From positions 889,823-953,822 of the forward strand of contig CAWKKR010000001.1 in assembly GCA_963850305.1 (NCBI GenBank): a stretch of 64,000 bases of DNA. Direction: 5' to 3'. This document shows, piece by piece, positions 9,247 through 17,002 of this stretch (position 1 is the first letter of the stretch; each line of letters starts with the position of its first letter). The notes under the pieces were generated by a model. The model was not told where the DNA came from and ran no database searches. It worked only from the letters and a program-made list of their open reading frames with translations. The stretch comes from an uncultured delta proteobacterium. Lineage in GTDB: Bacteria; Myxococcota_A; Polyangia; Polyangiales; Polyangiaceae. The translations under genes were made by a program, and so were the position numbers.

Positions 9247-10176
9247 TTACCGTTTACTCCGTGACGGAGAGGATGAGCGGCGCGCGGCCGAGCTGGAAGA
9301 CCGAGAAGTCGTCGGTGCACGCGCAGGTGCTGCGTGGGACTCGAGCGGCGCGGGGTGATCCGTCGCGCGGCCCGCCGTCGGATTCGAGGTCGCGACATGC
9401 GTCGGCTCGGTCGACTCTGGGGCATGTCGCTCGACGGCCCCGGCTTCGCTCGAGCCGCGCGGCGCGGACGTCGTGGGTTCGTAGACGCCGCGCGGTTCAG
9501 GAGTTCCGGCGCGACGCACCATTCCCGGTTCTTCCCTGCCCGCCGCCTGGCTTCGCGCCGAAGGCTCCGCACGCTCACCCTCGACACGGCCCGGTGGCCC
9601 CCCTCGCTCGGCCGAGACGCGCTGCGCGCGCGGGGGCTCGCCACGATAGCCGCCCGCGGGGGCGCCGGGCGCGGTGCGCCACCTCGTGTTATGGGCGGGC
9701 TCCGCACGCCAAGCGCGTGGCTCGTATGCCGGTCGAGCGCGATACGCCGCCGGGGCCTCCGTTCTGCCCCCATATCCGTAGCCGTACTCGCGGCGCCCGT
9801 CCGGCGCGTTGTAATAGCCCCTGTAATAAACTGCGCGATCCCCTTCCCAGACGAACCGAGGCCCCACATAGGCGTATCCCGGCCGGGCTGGGTACCAGTA
9901 GCCGCTTACCCAGGCCCAGTCGGTCGCGTTCCAATCCCAGTAGCCCGGTGCCCATGCGTAGCCGTAGCCAGGGGTCGGCGGTTGCTGTTCCGGGATCGGG
10001 TCCGGCGGCGGCGAATTCGGATAGGCCGTACCTTCATCGGCGACGGGTGCGGCTGCGGGCGCCTCGACGGGCTGCGGTGGCGGCTGCGCGGGCTCGGTAT
10101 ACACGACGCATCCGGTGGCGAGCCACGCCATCGACACCAGGGACCATGAAAGACCTCGATTGATCATCTGCATCAC
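9247..10176 (-). CDS. YXWGXW-repeat lipoprotein with disordered C-terminus
   Basis: Lipobox ATGC; repeats YAWAPGYWDW and WAWVSGYW; Pro/Ala/Ser-rich tail. Confidence 0.8.
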   Translation of the reverse strand: MMQMINRGLSWSLVSMAWLATGCVVYTEPAQPPPQPVEAPAAAPVADEGTAYPNSPPPDPIPEQQPPTPGYGYAWAPGYWDWNATDWAWVSGYWYPARPGYAYVGPRFVWEGDRAVYYRGYYNAPDGRREYGYGYGGRTEAPAAYRARPAYEPRAWRAEPAHNTRWRTAPGAPAGGYRGEPPRAQRVSAERGGPPGRVEGERAEPSARSQAAGREEPGMVRRAGTPEPRGVYEPTTSAPRGSSEAGAVERHAPESTEPTHVATSNPTAGRATDHPAPLESHAAPARAPTTSRSSSSAARRSSSPSRSKR

Positions 10177-10393: not shown

Positions 10394-12148
10394 ATGAGAA
10401 CCCGCGCCGTGGCCGTCGCTAGCGAGCGCAGCAACGCCGTGGGCGTAATGGAGCTCGAGTGCACGCCCCTCGGTTTGCTCATCGTGCACCACGGCGTCGG
10501 CTCATTCCACGACGGCTACGCTCCCGGCGCGGTCACGACCGGCACCCGGGTGCTGATCCCGTGGGATGCCGTCCGCGAATCGAATCTCGAGGGGGACAGG
10601 CTGTACCTCAGCGTGGACCCGGCGCTCACGCCGCATCATCACCTCGTGCTGGCGGGGTTCTCGGTTGGCGATCCGCCCAATCCGAGCGAGGTCTCCCGCC
10701 AGCGGCTCGTCGTGCGGATCGGCACGGGCGCCACGATGGCCGTCGCCGGCTTACTCGCGGCCCTGACGGTGTTTCGTGGCAGCCCGGAAATGGGGGGCGC
10801 CGCAGCCCTGTTCGTTGGCGTTCTGTCCGCGGGCACGGTGCTCGCCCTCGGCGTCGTCATGGAGCAGCGACTCGGCCTCGGGCGCGTCGATACCGACGGC
10901 GCGCGCCTCGCGTTCGCGACGGAACTGTCCGCGTTCGTGCCTAGCCTCGCGCGCTCGCTACGCCCCGACACGCCCGAACCGCTGCCGGCGGAGCCGCTCC
11001 CGCTTCCATCTTTCCAGGCGCTCCTCCCACGTTCGACCACCGCGGTGGTCATTACGATGTCGGCGGCGCTGCTCGGCGCGGTACTGACCGCGGCATGGGT
11101 ATCGAGAACACCGATCCGGACGGACGACGCTCGGGCAGAGACGGAACGGGTCGCGCCCGCTGACCGGCACGCGGCGGAAACGCCCGCGGCCGCTCCGATG
11201 CCACCGACACCTGCGATATCCCCACCCACCGCGAGCGCTCTGGCTACGAGCCCCGTGGCACCGGCAGCGAGCGGCGATTCCGCGACGTTGACCGGAGCCT
11301 GTACATGCAAGCGGAGCGATTCGCTGCTGTGGCGGGCGGGCATCCCCCGCATGAGCACGGTCATCATCGACCGGCGACCCCTCGAACGTCACGGCCATAC
11401 GCATCTCGAGGTCGACCTCGGCGTGGTGAACAACTGGGATCAGCCGATCCCGGAGGTCGCCCTGCTCGTGCAATTCTACGATCGCGACCCACCTCCATCG
11501 ACGAAGCGGACGCCCACGTATTCACGGCCGCTCTATTTCGAAGGGCCTCTCATGCCCGGCCAGGCGATCATGTGGCACGTGGAGGCGCGCGGCGACGATT
11601 TCGACGTGACGCTCCCACCGGGACCCTTGCTGGACGCGTCCGGCGCGGATGCGGCCCCGACGAACGAGCTTGCGGAACTCCTGAAGGCCATTCACCGTCC
11701 GATCCGACTTCATGGTGCGATGATGCTCGCGTTCCTCGGAGATCCACGAGCGAAGGAAGCTACGCTCGGTCTGCGCGAGGCGCTCCGGGAAGACGAGGGA
11801 CCGTTCCTCGATCGCCTCGCGTGGACTCTTTCCGACGTACGGACCTGCGCGGTAGAAGCAGCGAAGGGCGGAAATCCCCGGACCGTTCGCGCCTGCGTGT
11901 TCAACGCGGGTGGCGCGGCGCGTGACGATCTGGGACTCAAGGTGCGCGCACTCGACCGACTCGTTTCCGCGGACGCGCCGCTCGAGGCACCGCCGCTCGT
12001 CGTGGCCGAACACGCATTCCGTCTGGCGGGGCAGCTTGCTCCCGGGCAGGGTGCGCTGACCTCGATCGCCCTCGACACGACGAACGCCGATGGCCTCATG
12101 GCGCAATCCTTCGAAGCGTACGCAGATCGCCGAGACGTCGTCTTTTGA
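10394..12148 (+). CDS. Hypothetical membrane protein (3 TM, Pro-rich linker, large C-terminal domain)
   Basis: 584-aa ORF with GC3-rich codons and three hydrophobic helices. Confidence 0.8.
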   Translation: MRTRAVAVASERSNAVGVMELECTPLGLLIVHHGVGSFHDGYAPGAVTTGTRVLIPWDAVRESNLEGDRLYLSVDPALTPHHHLVLAGFSVGDPPNPSEVSRQRLVVRIGTGATMAVAGLLAALTVFRGSPEMGGAAALFVGVLSAGTVLALGVVMEQRLGLGRVDTDGARLAFATELSAFVPSLARSLRPDTPEPLPAEPLPLPSFQALLPRSTTAVVITMSAALLGAVLTAAWVSRTPIRTDDARAETERVAPADRHAAETPAAAPMPPTPAISPPTASALATSPVAPAASGDSATLTGACTCKRSDSLLWRAGIPRMSTVIIDRRPLERHGHTHLEVDLGVVNNWDQPIPEVALLVQFYDRDPPPSTKRTPTYSRPLYFEGPLMPGQAIMWHVEARGDDFDVTLPPGPLLDASGADAAPTNELAELLKAIHRPIRLHGAMMLAFLGDPRAKEATLGLREALREDEGPFLDRLAWTLSDVRTCAVEAAKGGNPRTVRACVFNAGGAARDDLGLKVRALDRLVSADAPLEAPPLVVAEHAFRLAGQLAPGQGALTSIALDTTNADGLMAQSFEAYADRRDVVF

Positions 12149-12247: not shown

Positions 12248-15200
12248 ATGCCCGCGATGAACAGACAGCAGCCGCGATCGACTCGCCTCCTCGATTTCCT
12301 GGCTCGAGGGATCCTGGCGCTGGCAGTCTGGGCGGGCGCCCCGCATTCCGTAGCCAGAGCCGATGATGCCGGAGCAAACTCCGCCGATGGCGGGGAAGGC
12401 GACCCCGACATCCAAGCGCTGAACGAGGAATCACAGCGGATAGAAGCGCTGCTGCGGGGGAAGCTCGATATCGCGGTCGACCCCGCGACCCTGTTCGATG
12501 TCGACCTCGATGACCCGGCAGCGGTTCGAGTGGACGCCGCTCGGCTCGGCGCCATCGTCGCCGCGGCAAACGAGACGTCCTCGGTCACCAAAGGGCGCAA
12601 GCCAAGGGTCTTCAGGACGGGTGTCGCGCGAGGTTCGTCGCCTCAGGATGCCGGAGAGCCTCGCGCGGATCCCGCTCTCTTTGCCGCACGGATCGCCCTC
12701 GACCGCACGCGTCTCGAGTTCTACGATCTCCGCGACGCGCGCCGGCGGACCCTCCTCGCCACGCATGCCGAACGTCAGCAGGCGGCGCGCCAGAAGGGCC
12801 CGGCCCTCGGTGAATCCGAAAGGCGGGCTCGCAACGCCGAAGCGCAGCGCGAGCAGGCGCTCAAAGAAGCCGAGAGCGCCAGAACCGAGGCCGAGAAGAC
12901 CGTGGCCGAGGAGTACGCAAAGGTCCTCGAGGTCACGCAGAAGCAAGCCGACTTCGAGTCCAAGCTGGCCCTGGCGCGCGAAAACCTGAAGGCTCGAGCG
13001 GAAGAAGCCCTCGCGCTCGATCGTCGTGTGCGAGAGACGCTCGACGGAGCTCATTCGGACCCTTCCGTGGCGGACTCTCTGTACGACGACCTCAGGGCGT
13101 CGCTACGTGGCGCGCGCAAGGAGCTTGCCCGCGCCCTGTCGGCGACGTCACCGGACGGCCGCGCCGTCTCGGCCCCACCCGACGACCCGCTCGGCCGGCT
13201 ACCAGTAGGCGTCAATCACGCGGCCTACGATCATGCGCGGGAGGCCGCGATCATCGCGGCGGGCCGTCTCTCGGAGAGCGCGATTGCGCTGAACGAGCAG
13301 CGCATCGATCAGCTCGGCGAAGAGATTCACGTCCAGAACGAGAGCAGACTTTCGCTCCTTCCGCTCTTGACCAGCTCGAAACGTGTCGCGATCACCGGCT
13401 TCGGTCCATCGGGGTTCGATCAGGCGTCGGCCGAGATCCGACAGGTGGTCCTCATCGTCCGTTACCACCTTCACAAGGCGCGAGACTGGCTCATAGCGAC
13501 GTCGTCGCGCGACAAGGGGGGCTCGTCGGTCAGCGCCGCATTTCTCATCGCCAAGTGGTTGTTCGCGTCGGTCGTCTACATCTGGTGGCGGCGGCGCGCG
13601 GTGGTCGTGCTTTCGGTGTGGCGGTCGCGCGTGCAAGAGCAGGAGCGGCGCGCGAGGATGGTGGAGCCCAGCCCGCTCTACAAGGCGCTGGGCCTCGTTT
13701 TGCAGGTCCGCAAACCGCTCGAGTGGCTCGTGTTCGGCTGGGCGCTACTCGCCCTGGCGCCCGAAGACGCTGCTCAGCTCCTCGAGGTGAATCTCGGTCG
13801 GACCATCTTTATCTGGATGCTGGGCGGCGCACTCGGCGTCTCTACCATCGACGCCCTATCCGGGCGTGAGCACGATGAAGGGGAGACGGGGAATTCATCA
13901 CAGATCGCGCAGCTGCGGCTCCGATCGCTGCGGCTGGTGGGGCGCACGATCGTGGCCTTCGGATTGACGCTATCGCTCACGGCTCGACTCGTCGGGCAGG
14001 GTACAATCTATAGTTGGGTTTTTTCGACGTGCTGGTTCGCTGCGGCACCGGTGTTTTTGGTCATCGTGCGATGGTGGCGCGAGGAGATCTATCGGCGCAT
14101 CGGCCGCATGCGCAAGAAGCGCGCGTTCGAGCTCTGGATCGAACGAAACCAGACTGGCTCGGCGAGCTTCTTCACGGCGGCGGTCGGCGGCGCCTATCTC
14201 TTCGGCGTCGGAGCCCTTCGTGCGACGCGCACCTGGGCGAGTCGCTTCGACGTCACTCGGAGAGCGCTTGCGTACCTGTTTCTTCGCGATCTCGACCGGC
14301 TCGCGGAGGAGAACACCGCCGTTGCGTTCGAGGCTCTTCCCGAGGCTGTCTTCGCCGCCCTGGGCCCCGATGTGCCCTCGGCGGAGCTCGTGATCACGCG
14401 CTCCATCGAGGACACCGAGAATCTGCTGGAGCGCATGGCGGAGTCAGGCGGCGTCATCGCCATCGTCGGCGAACGCGGCGCCGGCAAGACGACGTTGCTT
14501 CATCGGATCGAGGAAGCGAACGCCGGCATGGTCTCCATCGAGTGTCCGTTCGGCGGCTTCGAGACTCTGGAACGCGCGCTGAACACGCGGCTCGATCTTC
14601 GCGGCGAGCGGACGCTGAGCGATGCCGTCGATACACTGAAGAGCTCGCATCACACCGGGCTGCTGATCGATGATGCCCATCGCCTGATCCACCCGGTGAT
14701 GGGCGGACTCGCTGCATTCGATCGTCTCCTCGAGACCGCCCGCAGCCACGCCTCGAATTTTACCTGGGTGTTCGCGATGGATGAGGTCGTGTGGCCCTTT
14801 TTTCGACAAGCACGCGGGGTTCGGCCTCTGTTCGACGAGGTGATTCTGCTCGAGGGGTGGCCGGAAGAACACATCGCCAGGTTGATCGAAGCGAGGTGTC
14901 GTCAAGCGGACGTGAAGCCGAGCTTTCGACACGTGCTCCCGAAGATGCCTCTGGACGCGGACGAAACCGATATTGGCGAGGCGACGCGTCGAACGACCGG
15001 CAACTACCATCGGCTCCTCTGGGACTACTCCGCCGGCTGCCCGGGCGTCGCCCTTCACATGTGGCGCCAGTCGCTCGGTGTGGACGCGACGGGACAAAGC
15101 TACGTGAAGCCGTTTCGCCCTCCAGACCCGGCCGACCTCGAGCGCTTGCCCGACCCGGCCGTGTTCGTATTGCGGACAATCATTCAGCTGGAGGAGGCGA

Positions 15201-15385
15201 CGCGCGACGAAATCGCCGCCGCGACCATGTTGCGGCTCTCGCCCATCGAGGACGCCCTCAGATACTGCACGGCCCGTGGCTACCTCGAGCGAGTCGGTGA
15301 CCGGTATCACATGAGCTGGGCGTGGTTTCGGGCGGTCACGCGATTTCTCCAGAGACGGCATCTCCTGGGCCGCGTGCTCGATTAG
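12248..15385 (+). CDS. Large multi-TM P-loop NTPase (signal peptide, coiled coil, TM bundle, AAA/STAND-like domain)
   Basis: Signal-like ILALAVWAGAPHSVARA; heptad-rich region; several TM helices; Walker A GERGAGKTT; Walker B LLIDD. Confidence 0.88.
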   Translation: MPAMNRQQPRSTRLLDFLARGILALAVWAGAPHSVARADDAGANSADGGEGDPDIQALNEESQRIEALLRGKLDIAVDPATLFDVDLDDPAAVRVDAARLGAIVAAANETSSVTKGRKPRVFRTGVARGSSPQDAGEPRADPALFAARIALDRTRLEFYDLRDARRRTLLATHAERQQAARQKGPALGESERRARNAEAQREQALKEAESARTEAEKTVAEEYAKVLEVTQKQADFESKLALARENLKARAEEALALDRRVRETLDGAHSDPSVADSLYDDLRASLRGARKELARALSATSPDGRAVSAPPDDPLGRLPVGVNHAAYDHAREAAIIAAGRLSESAIALNEQRIDQLGEEIHVQNESRLSLLPLLTSSKRVAITGFGPSGFDQASAEIRQVVLIVRYHLHKARDWLIATSSRDKGGSSVSAAFLIAKWLFASVVYIWWRRRAVVVLSVWRSRVQEQERRARMVEPSPLYKALGLVLQVRKPLEWLVFGWALLALAPEDAAQLLEVNLGRTIFIWMLGGALGVSTIDALSGREHDEGETGNSSQIAQLRLRSLRLVGRTIVAFGLTLSLTARLVGQGTIYSWVFSTCWFAAAPVFLVIVRWWREEIYRRIGRMRKKRAFELWIERNQTGSASFFTAAVGGAYLFGVGALRATRTWASRFDVTRRALAYLFLRDLDRLAEENTAVAFEALPEAVFAALGPDVPSAELVITRSIEDTENLLERMAESGGVIAIVGERGAGKTTLLHRIEEANAGMVSIECPFGGFETLERALNTRLDLRGERTLSDAVDTLKSSHHTGLLIDDAHRLIHPVMGGLAAFDRLLETARSHASNFTWVFAMDEVVWPFFRQARGVRPLFDEVILLEGWPEEHIARLIEARCRQADVKPSFRHVLPKMPLDADETDIGEATRRTTGNYHRLLWDYSAGCPGVALHMWRQSLGVDATGQSYVKPFRPPDPADLERLPDPAVFVLRTIIQLEEATRDEIAAATMLRLSPIEDALRYCTARGYLERVGDRYHMSWAWFRAVTRFLQRRHLLGRVLD

Positions 15386-15396
15386 GAAGCAAGTCG

Positions 15397-16314
15397 ATGA
15401 CACCGAGATTCCGCCACGGCAAACTCGTGCTTTTCACGCTCCTGCTCGCGTCCACGGCGTGGGCCGACGACGCACCCGACATCGGGAAGCTGGCCGGCAT
15501 CGTCCGCTGGGGCGGTGTGCTCCTTTCGATGTTCGTGGTCGTCGGCAGCACGGTCGTGGTCCGGCTGATCGGGAATGTGGCGACCCGATTGACCTCGCGG
15601 TTCGCCAATCGTCGTCCCTTCATTCAGCAGACGGAATCGATCGCGCGATTCTTGATCTACATCGTCGCCGCGATCATCTGTCTCGGGCTCAGTGTGCGAC
15701 TCGACCCGACGGCGGTCACCCTCATCGGCGGCAGCCTTGCGTTCGCGGTCGGCTTCGCCATGCGCGATCTGGTGGCCGCCTTCATCGCCGGGATCACGAT
15801 CATGTTCGATCGGCCGTTCCAGGTCGGTGACCGTGTCATGTATGCGGGTGAGTATGGGGACATCGTGAAGATCGGCCTCCGCAGCGTGCAGATGAACACG
15901 CTCGATCACAACATCGTGACGATCCCGAACAACAAGGTGCTCACGGACGTCACCTCGAGCGGCAACTACGGGGCTCTCGACATGCAGGTGGCGATGACCT
16001 TTTACGTGGGCATCGATCAGGACCTGGAGCTAGCATCCGAGCTCGTCCGCGAGGCATGCCTCACGAGTCCTTACGTGTTCCTGGATCGGGCGGTACCAGT
16101 GCTCGCCCGACAGGTGATGCAGGAGAGCTACGTGGCCGTGGAGCTCAAGGCGCGTCCGTACGTTTTCGATTGTCGGTACGAGAAGCCGTTCGAGACCGAC
16201 GTCCATCTGCGCGTCCTCAAGGCGTTTCGCGAAGCCGGGATCAAACCTCCGGCCGTTCTCGTCCGTCGCACCGACGGCGAGCGTGACCCGGCAGAGAGCC
16301 CGGCGTCCCCCTGA
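15397..16314 (+). CDS. Small-conductance mechanosensitive channel, MscS family
   Basis: GGSLAFAVGFAMRDLVAAFIAGITIMFDRPFQVGDRV, GDIVKIGLRS and IVTIPNN motifs. Confidence 0.92.
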   Translation: MTPRFRHGKLVLFTLLLASTAWADDAPDIGKLAGIVRWGGVLLSMFVVVGSTVVVRLIGNVATRLTSRFANRRPFIQQTESIARFLIYIVAAIICLGLSVRLDPTAVTLIGGSLAFAVGFAMRDLVAAFIAGITIMFDRPFQVGDRVMYAGEYGDIVKIGLRSVQMNTLDHNIVTIPNNKVLTDVTSSGNYGALDMQVAMTFYVGIDQDLELASELVREACLTSPYVFLDRAVPVLARQVMQESYVAVELKARPYVFDCRYEKPFETDVHLRVLKAFREAGIKPPAVLVRRTDGERDPAESPASP

Positions 16315-16417
16315 TTTCGGACGCGGCGACGACCGATGGCATTGCGGGACGCGCCTTCGAGGCTTACGCCGACGGAACGTTGCCCTCCGAACGGCCGACT
16401 CTCGCGAAAGAGCACCA

Positions 16418-17002
16418 ATGACGCTCGCCGGGCTCCTCGCTCGTTACGGGTACCTCGCGGTGCTCGGCGGTTCGTTCCTCGAAGGAGAAACCATCGTGCT
16501 GATGGGCGGGTTCTCGGCGCACGGAGGCTACCTCGGGCTCCCGGGCGTCATCGCGGCGGCGTTCGTCGGAAGCCTCGTGGGCGACCAACTCGCCTACTTC
16601 CTGGGCCGAGAATACGGCGACCGCTTGCTCGCGCGACGACCGAAGTGGCGCCCCACGATCGAGCTGGTCCGCGACCGACTTCATCGACATAGCACGTGGC
16701 TGCTCGTCGGCTTTCGTTTCCTGTACGGGTTGCGGAACGCCGTGCCGTTCGCCGCGGGAATGACCGGCATCGCACCGCGCAAATTCGCGCCGCTGAACAT
16801 TCTCGGCGCGGCGCTCTGGGCCCCGTCGATCACCTTGCTCGGATACGCCTTCGGAAGCGCCTTCGAGGCGTTCCTCGACCGCGCACGGCACCTCGAAGTG
16901 CGAGCGTTCCTGAGCCTGACGCTCGTGGGGGTCGTATTGTTCACGTGGCGTCGGGTTCAGCGAGCGCACGCGTTGCGCAGGGCCCGGCTCAAGAATGAAT
17001 GA
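16418..17002 (+). CDS. DedA family membrane protein
   Basis: FLEGETIVLMGG, GSLVGDQLAYFLGR, GFRFLYGLR motifs. Confidence 0.92.
   Translation: MTLAGLLARYGYLAVLGGSFLEGETIVLMGGFSAHGGYLGLPGVIAAAFVGSLVGDQLAYFLGREYGDRLLARRPKWRPTIELVRDRLHRHSTWLLVGFRFLYGLRNAVPFAAGMTGIAPRKFAPLNILGAALWAPSITLLGYAFGSAFEAFLDRARHLEVRAFLSLTLVGVVLFTWRRVQRAHALRRARLKNE

Follow-up and report, generated by a model that had tools for sequence, protein, structure and literature searches.

Bacterial mechanosensitive channels are regarded as self-contained tension valves. A locus of an uncultured delta proteobacterium of the Polyangiaceae (assembly GCA_963850305.1, contig CAWKKR010000001.1) raises the question of whether such a valve can have a nucleotide-binding partner. 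In the 64 000 nt stretch analysed (the window), a gene for a 1045-residue nucleoside triphosphatase (NTPase) with a membrane bundle is followed by a gene for a small MscS-family channel, whose ATG (15397) lies 11 nt past the NTPase stop codon, and 103 nt further on by dedA. A sequence-only reading had seen a possible split MscK, gated or energised by ATP, in one system with DedA and acting in osmotic stress, export or membrane-based defence; the open reading frames (ORFs), the Walker motifs and the 11 nt gap were found as it described them when re-read from the sequence. The best reading, with a probability of roughly 0.55, is that the two proteins make up an MscS-type channel that would control ions and turgor, the large protein being an auxiliary MscK-type sensor subunit.

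Conservation of the NTPase–MscS pair

Gene neighbourhoods were compared in a genome set (the 80 best of 154 loci) and a metagenome set (80 of 82 loci); the loci include kin and are not independent, so the figures are counts, not statistics. An MscS gene (44–76 % identity) directly followed the NTPase gene in 78 of the 80 genome loci, the exceptions being L036, where only 77 bp of contig were left, and L020, whose genome has the cognate MscS on another contig. The dedicated MscS also followed in 74 of the 80 metagenome loci, the remainder being five contig-end cuts and one broken gene. In the reverse direction, the cognate MscS was found in 47 of 151 genomes of the phylum, and all 48 matches (E ≤ 1e-40) lay directly downstream of an NTPase match. 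Of three plasmid matches, the two inspected, on Novosphingobium pentaromativorans US6-1 pLA3 and on a Caulobacter plasmid, carried the pair. Co-occurrence is strictly conserved in both directions, and NTPase and MscS together constitute an obligate two-gene cassette that is mobile.

The closest named relatives of the NTPase are from Polyangiaceae and other myxobacteria, and the large gene is also present in Pendulispora rubella. The 101 full-length relatives from the first search share the whole architecture, and a library clustered at 50 % identity held 1262, 2612 and 3606 clusters of relatives at E ≤ 1e-30, 1e-10 and 1e-3, respectively. On 156 paired rows, the two proteins gave no informative covariation: the top-ranked pairs mostly mirrored phylogeny or involved near-invariant columns, and a mirror-tree correlation of 0.88 is no more than linkage of the genes would lead one to expect. 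The pair is common in the sampled genomes of the phylum and present in named isolates, so it is open to study now.

No paper on the pair was found in a literature search that had supplements and most subscription papers outside its scope, and the sequence-only reading knew of no characterised system with this layout. We know of no bacterial mechanosensitive channel with a dedicated nucleotide-binding subunit, and the locus suggests a variant of the MscS/MscK channels whose partner is of a type not described before.

Two loci depart from the usual gene content. In L136 (G324:C59, 4313–5227, minus strand), a cognate-type MscS without an NTPase gene lies at a contig end and looks orphaned; from its motifs, we take the ORF beside it to be transposase-like. 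In L076 (9464–10321), a tandem duplicate of the cognate MscS stands directly behind the first copy.

The channel subunit

The MscS encoded by the small gene is intact and belongs to a separate clade of channels partnered by NTPases. It matched PF00924 with 62 bits (cut-off 20.2; E 6e-17) and PF21082 with 23.2 bits (cut-off 21). Channels of the MscS family are heptamers that open under membrane tension. It shares the three-helix membrane part, the β domain and the α/β cage domain with E. coli MscS (YggB) and stand-alone MscS proteins, but differs from them in its predicted signal peptide, its F116/F120 gate, the Asp at the G113 hinge and its obligate partner gene. The signal-peptide-like start is conserved in the clade (A21 88 %, A23 94 %, Q24 87 %). 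The Gly/Ala-rich pore helix, GGSLAFAVGFAMRD, aligns with that of MscM, and its two-residue hydrophobic gate corresponds to V/F in MscM and V921/F925 in MscK. The kink at G113 of E. coli MscS has been linked to inactivation (PMC4003192), and from the Asp at this position the partnered MscS may inactivate only weakly.

Mean column identity was 72 % in MscS, compared with 35–54 % in the NTPase partner. In MAFFT alignments from eight loci, the MscS was more conserved than another MscS clade of those loci, used as a control, both in transmembrane helices TM1–2 (0.54 vs 0.31) and in the α/β cage domain (0.69 vs 0.54). In a 53-row tree, the MscS partners of full-length and stand-alone NTPases formed one clade (Shimodaira–Hasegawa-like approximate likelihood ratio test, SH-aLRT, 96), which the partners of transporter fusions joined on long branches (SH-aLRT 92), and the MscK/MscM clade was separate (SH-aLRT 98). 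An origin by simple fission of an MscK is therefore weakened, although the approximately unbiased (AU) test, run without four long rows, did not reject a union of the partnered MscS with MscK/MscM (p 0.21). In the tree, the gene does not fall inside MscK/MscM, and the outer module seems to be a building block, joined in some proteins to an MscS core and in others to the AAA+ module. The source genome itself has a single copy of the NTPase and a few unrelated MscS genes.

The N-terminal half of the partner and its probable kinship with MscK

MscK and MscM combine a signal peptide, a periplasmic helical bundle, an outer TM bundle and an MscS core (PMC9653487). The present system has, like E. coli MscK (KefA) and MscM (YjeP), a predicted signal peptide and an MscS core in which the lower gate contains Phe and the G113 position is acidic, and probably also counterparts of the periplasmic and outer TM bundles. 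The layouts differ, since MscK and MscM each unite the periplasmic domain, 11 TM helices and the cage in a single polypeptide, whereas here there are two genes separated by a stop codon and the 11 nt gap, with the NTPase in between, and a single partial fusion was seen among the loci. The outer module here ends in an AAA+-winged-helix module instead of continuing into TM7–11, and in the tree the MscS core branches apart from MscK/MscM. Gating of MscK also depends on external K+.

By a simple heuristic (not SignalP), the query and 149 of 176 full-length relatives begin with a hydrophobic stretch followed by an AxA-like site; five of 176 internal windows used as a control passed the hydrophobicity test of this heuristic. 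The AlphaFold model (predicted local distance difference test 89) has long helices at residues 53–420, a helical membrane bundle at 426–665, a P-loop core and a C-terminal winged helix. Charge bias suggests that residues 427–657 make five membrane crossings, with a sixth helix that may be re-entrant or interfacial. Foldseek, VIA, HHalign and ESM features all pointed, weakly to moderately, to a resemblance of residues ~215–650 to the MscK periplasmic bundle and TM1–6. Several searches weigh on the other side. A wide VIA search with the N-terminal model returned only short helical hairpins, with MscK outside the top 50; single-sequence hhalign of the protein against E. coli MscK gave 0.4 %; HMMER with custom profiles found no match in either direction, the MscK profile matching none of 208 relatives; and neither PF12794 (MscS_TM) nor PF12795 (MscS_porin) was found in any of 68 members at E ≤ 0.1. 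The N-terminal half probably shares a distant ancestry with the periplasmic bundle and the peripheral TM1–6 bundle of MscK/MscM. In three loci (L087, L093 and L094), the partner ORFs as called are 1750–1830 residues long, with long extra N-terminal regions without a Pfam family.

The nucleotide-binding module

The C-terminus is an Orc1/TnsC/STAND-like AAA+-winged-helix module (STAND, signal transduction ATPases with numerous domains) with an intact P-loop and Asp replacing the catalytic Glu. Its Pfam match was AAA_22 (residues 733–839, E 7e-10); NCBIfam gave no family name for the protein. Fold matches were TnsC, Orc1/Cdc6 and the archaeal STAND-like ATPases PAB2304 (2qen) and SSO1545 (2fna), with weak matches to Avs5 and NLRs, and sequence searches against solved structures matched P-loop stretches only. 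Unlike Orc1/Cdc6, TnsC/MuB and the archaeal ATPases, the present protein is membrane-anchored behind a periplasmic domain, its Walker B ends in DD, and its partner is a channel rather than an origin or a transposase. STAND NTPases are marked by Walker A, an hhhhD[DE] Walker B, GxP in the helical domain and a winged helix, all found here (the winged helix in the model), and also by hhGRExE and a C-terminal repeat sensor; the family consensus has no hhGRExE before Walker A, and the protein stops at the winged helix, without a repeat sensor. Classical AAA+ motors such as Orc1/Cdc6 and TnsC are expected to have a Walker B Glu, a sensor-2 Arg after the lid motif and an arginine finger. The core and lid fold of these motors is present, but the catalytic Glu and the sensor-2 Arg are not. 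A KAP-family NTPase, in which TM helices are inserted between Walker A and Walker B, was rejected, as every hydrophobic peak precedes residue 660 and none falls between the two motifs.

An AAA+ ring might hydrolyse ATP to force the channel open or shut, to disassemble it, or to drive solutes or peptides through its pore. The likeness to the active ATPases TnsC and Orc1/Cdc6 favours this, as do a canonical Walker A in 193 of 208 close relatives, Asp at D808 in 99 % and three arginines, R854, R856 and R859 (87, 94 and 73 %; none directly before F862), which could act in trans. The second Walker B residue (809) is, however, Asp in 82 % and Glu in only 2 %, and the lid G-x-P (G930 99 %, P932 97 %) is followed at 933 by G or A, not by R. 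Outside this clade, Walker A is canonical in only six of 17 clade-B, three of nine transporter-fused and none of five stand-alone partners, although pairing with MscS persists. ATP-driven transport or remodelling is quite unlikely, and the suggestion that the channel is energised by ATP is weakened accordingly.

Retention of the lid and winged-helix motifs where the Walker motifs are lost would suit a partner that merely folds, places or anchors MscS, for instance at the cell wall or pole, with no gating role and a vestigial nucleotide site. The obligate pairing and the modelled periplasmic helices, which could be long enough to span the periplasm, fit as well. Against this, the strict P-loop conservation in this clade implies selection on nucleotide binding, and signalling accounts better for the resemblance to the gating module of MscK and for the swaps for ion antiporters; a scaffold alone is unlikely.

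Partner types and the proposed mechanism

Nine weaker NTPase matches were proteins of 1150–1540 residues, of which four of seven scanned carried a PF00999 antiporter domain and one a weak SLC12 match; a distant MscS was found downstream in five of the nine. Among 201 genomes of the class of G151 (labelled Gammaproteobacteria), a related MscS occurred in seven: the seed, one orphan and five others, each of the five behind a stand-alone AAA+-winged-helix gene of ~400 codons. The N-terminal half is thus replaced in relatives by an antiporter or by nothing, and the AAA+-winged-helix module is common to all partner types.

As the sole part common to all partner types, this module is assigned the docking role in the best reading, that of a two-component channel with an auxiliary sensor. 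It would dock on the cytoplasmic cage or the TM1–TM2 face of the MscS heptamer and keep the periplasmic helices and the membrane bundle arranged about the pore, rebuilding an MscK-like sensor ring from a separate chain. In this clade, ATP/ADP binding may shift docking and with it the opening threshold or recovery; the partner would be a nucleotide switch or scaffold, with no motor powering transport. A more specific form is tentative: an MscK-like channel built in trans, with seven partner chains ringing the MscS heptamer, an MscK-type gating ring made of their periplasmic helices and TM bundles, AAA+-winged helices clamping the cage and ATP/ADP setting the tension threshold, in which the docking module lets other lineages add an antiporter or nothing. 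It would represent a modular, nucleotide-gated mechanosensitive class and give a clue to the origin of the MscK sensor. If the MscK outer module does sit on a separate chain, its role becomes directly testable while the pore is left unchanged, and a partner-tuned channel would link turgor control to the energy state.

Separate or fused nucleotide-binding subunits also tune ion pores in KtrAB/TrkAH, KefC-type K+ systems and K-ATP (Kir6/SUR), through RCK/KTN or ABC domains acting on K+-selective pores. To our knowledge, none of these has an AAA+-winged-helix module or an MscS pore.

One locus (L100, G110:C646, 1753–4239, minus strand) encodes an 829-residue protein, P0266, in which the AAA+-winged helix runs in-frame into the C-terminal α/β domain of the cognate MscS; it has a signal peptide and shortened helical and TM parts, and lacks the pore. 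It may be a fusion that hints at where the two proteins touch, or else the remnant of an operon in decay. A search for further NTPase–MscS fusions gave three matches, none spanning the MscS part.

This fusion to the cage domain would be left unexplained if the partner were a membrane-tethered transcription or signalling regulator, whose winged helix bound DNA in an Orc1/MalT-like manner and controlled ion-homeostasis genes, including the adjacent mscS, without touching the channel. Such a regulator would be in line with MarR/ArsR/TrmB-like Pfam matches of the winged helix in relatives and with best fold matches to DNA-binding AAA+ proteins. It would require neither an MscS clade of its own nor the raised conservation of TM1–2 and the cage domain, and is very improbable.

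Insertion site and flanking genes

The inclusion of DedA in the system was not borne out. dedA followed the pair in none of the 80 genome and none of the 80 metagenome loci (L017 has one unrelated VTT gene upstream), and four same-genus genomes have the order ruvB, 584-codon gene, dedA, L,D-transpeptidase. The 584-codon gene directly adjoins dedA there, so dedA was the resident gene and the pair arrived upstream of it by insertion. The cognate MscS occurs in only two of six same-genus genomes, on contigs other than that of dedA. The upstream 584-codon gene was likewise rejected as a member, being absent from the same 80 genome and 80 metagenome loci and conserved at pair-free sites.

The flanking-gene scan covered 132 of 136 picked genes (four long ones left out). 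Ion channels or transporters made up 40 of the 132, 18 of them further MscS genes, and PADLOC matched only three, all generic Ser/Thr kinases. These neighbours bear on an anti-phage role, in which a STAND-like sensor would detect infection, open the MscS pore and depolarise the cell. The STAND-like module with its weak structural matches to Avs5 and NLRs speaks for this, together with the patchy same-genus distribution, recent insertion and plasmid copies. However, PADLOC matches covered the P-loop only (best E 0.002), there is no repeat sensor, no relative was found in the viral contigs searched, and the MscS is highly conserved, whereas arms-race genes are typically less so. Membrane-based defence is accordingly weakened and is the least probable of the explanations considered, and a defence island was rejected.

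The features of the locus are listed in Table 1. An alternative-frame artefact was rejected, as the codon GC pattern of the ORF is gene-like. The cassette region had no Rfam match and no sigma-70-like promoter, with terminator-like sites only at chance level, and its ends showed no informative repeats.

Table 1. Features of the NTPase–MscS locus (positions in the window)
Feature	Position	Strand	Basis
Partner gene, 1045 residues, envelope-spanning: signal peptide, periplasmic helices, membrane bundle, AAA+/STAND-like NTPase, winged helix	12248..15385	+	ORF, Pfam, relatives, AlphaFold model
Predicted Sec signal peptide (heuristic only), residues 1–38: basic n-region, h-region, A-R-A site	12248..12361	+	
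Periplasmic helical region, residues 53–420; ~215–420 align with membrane-proximal periplasmic bundle (gating ring) of E. coli MscK	12404..13507	+	
Six hydrophobic helices, residues 427–657; spacing like MscK TM1–6	13526..14218	+	
AAA+/STAND-like P-loop core and helical lid, residues 695–958; lid motif G-x-P at 930–932	14330..15121	+	Folds of TnsC, Orc1/Cdc6, archaeal ATPase
Walker A GERGAGKT, residues 741–748	14468..14491	+	Canonical in 193/208 close relatives
Walker B GLLIDD, residues 804–809 (LLIDD, 805–809)	14657..14674	+	
C-terminal winged-helix domain, residues 960–1040	15125..15367	+	
Dedicated MscS-family channel subunit, 305 residues, predicted signal peptide	15397..16314	+	PF00924, PF21082
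Pore helix of MscS, residues 105–125: gate F116/F120; D124 at E. coli MscS G113 position	15709..15771	+	
dedA (VTT), 194 residues, resident gene at insertion site, outside the system	16418..17002	+	PF09335, E 7e-18

The 584-residue protein (window 10394–12148, plus strand) has no Pfam, NCBIfam or PADLOC match and has membrane segments in its N-terminal half; its gene is kept between ruvB and dedA in the four same-genus genomes at 55–64 % identity. A WXXGXW-repeat lipoprotein-like gene (window 9247–10176, minus strand) between ruvB and the 584-codon gene is unmatched at the same site in those four genomes and therefore appears to be a second insertion beside the cassette.

An extra MscS match lay within 6 kb in 21 of the 80 loci, and a second, different MscS clade often adjoins the cognate MscS (L030, L032, L037, L047, L058, L062, L063, L068 and others; also L292), which may provide a subunit of a heteromeric channel or may merely cluster there. 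In L020, L023, L026 and L034, the pair is followed by a gene for an RCK channel of the Castor/Pollux type; in L020, the MscS is missing between the NTPase and RCK channel genes and is retained elsewhere in the genome.
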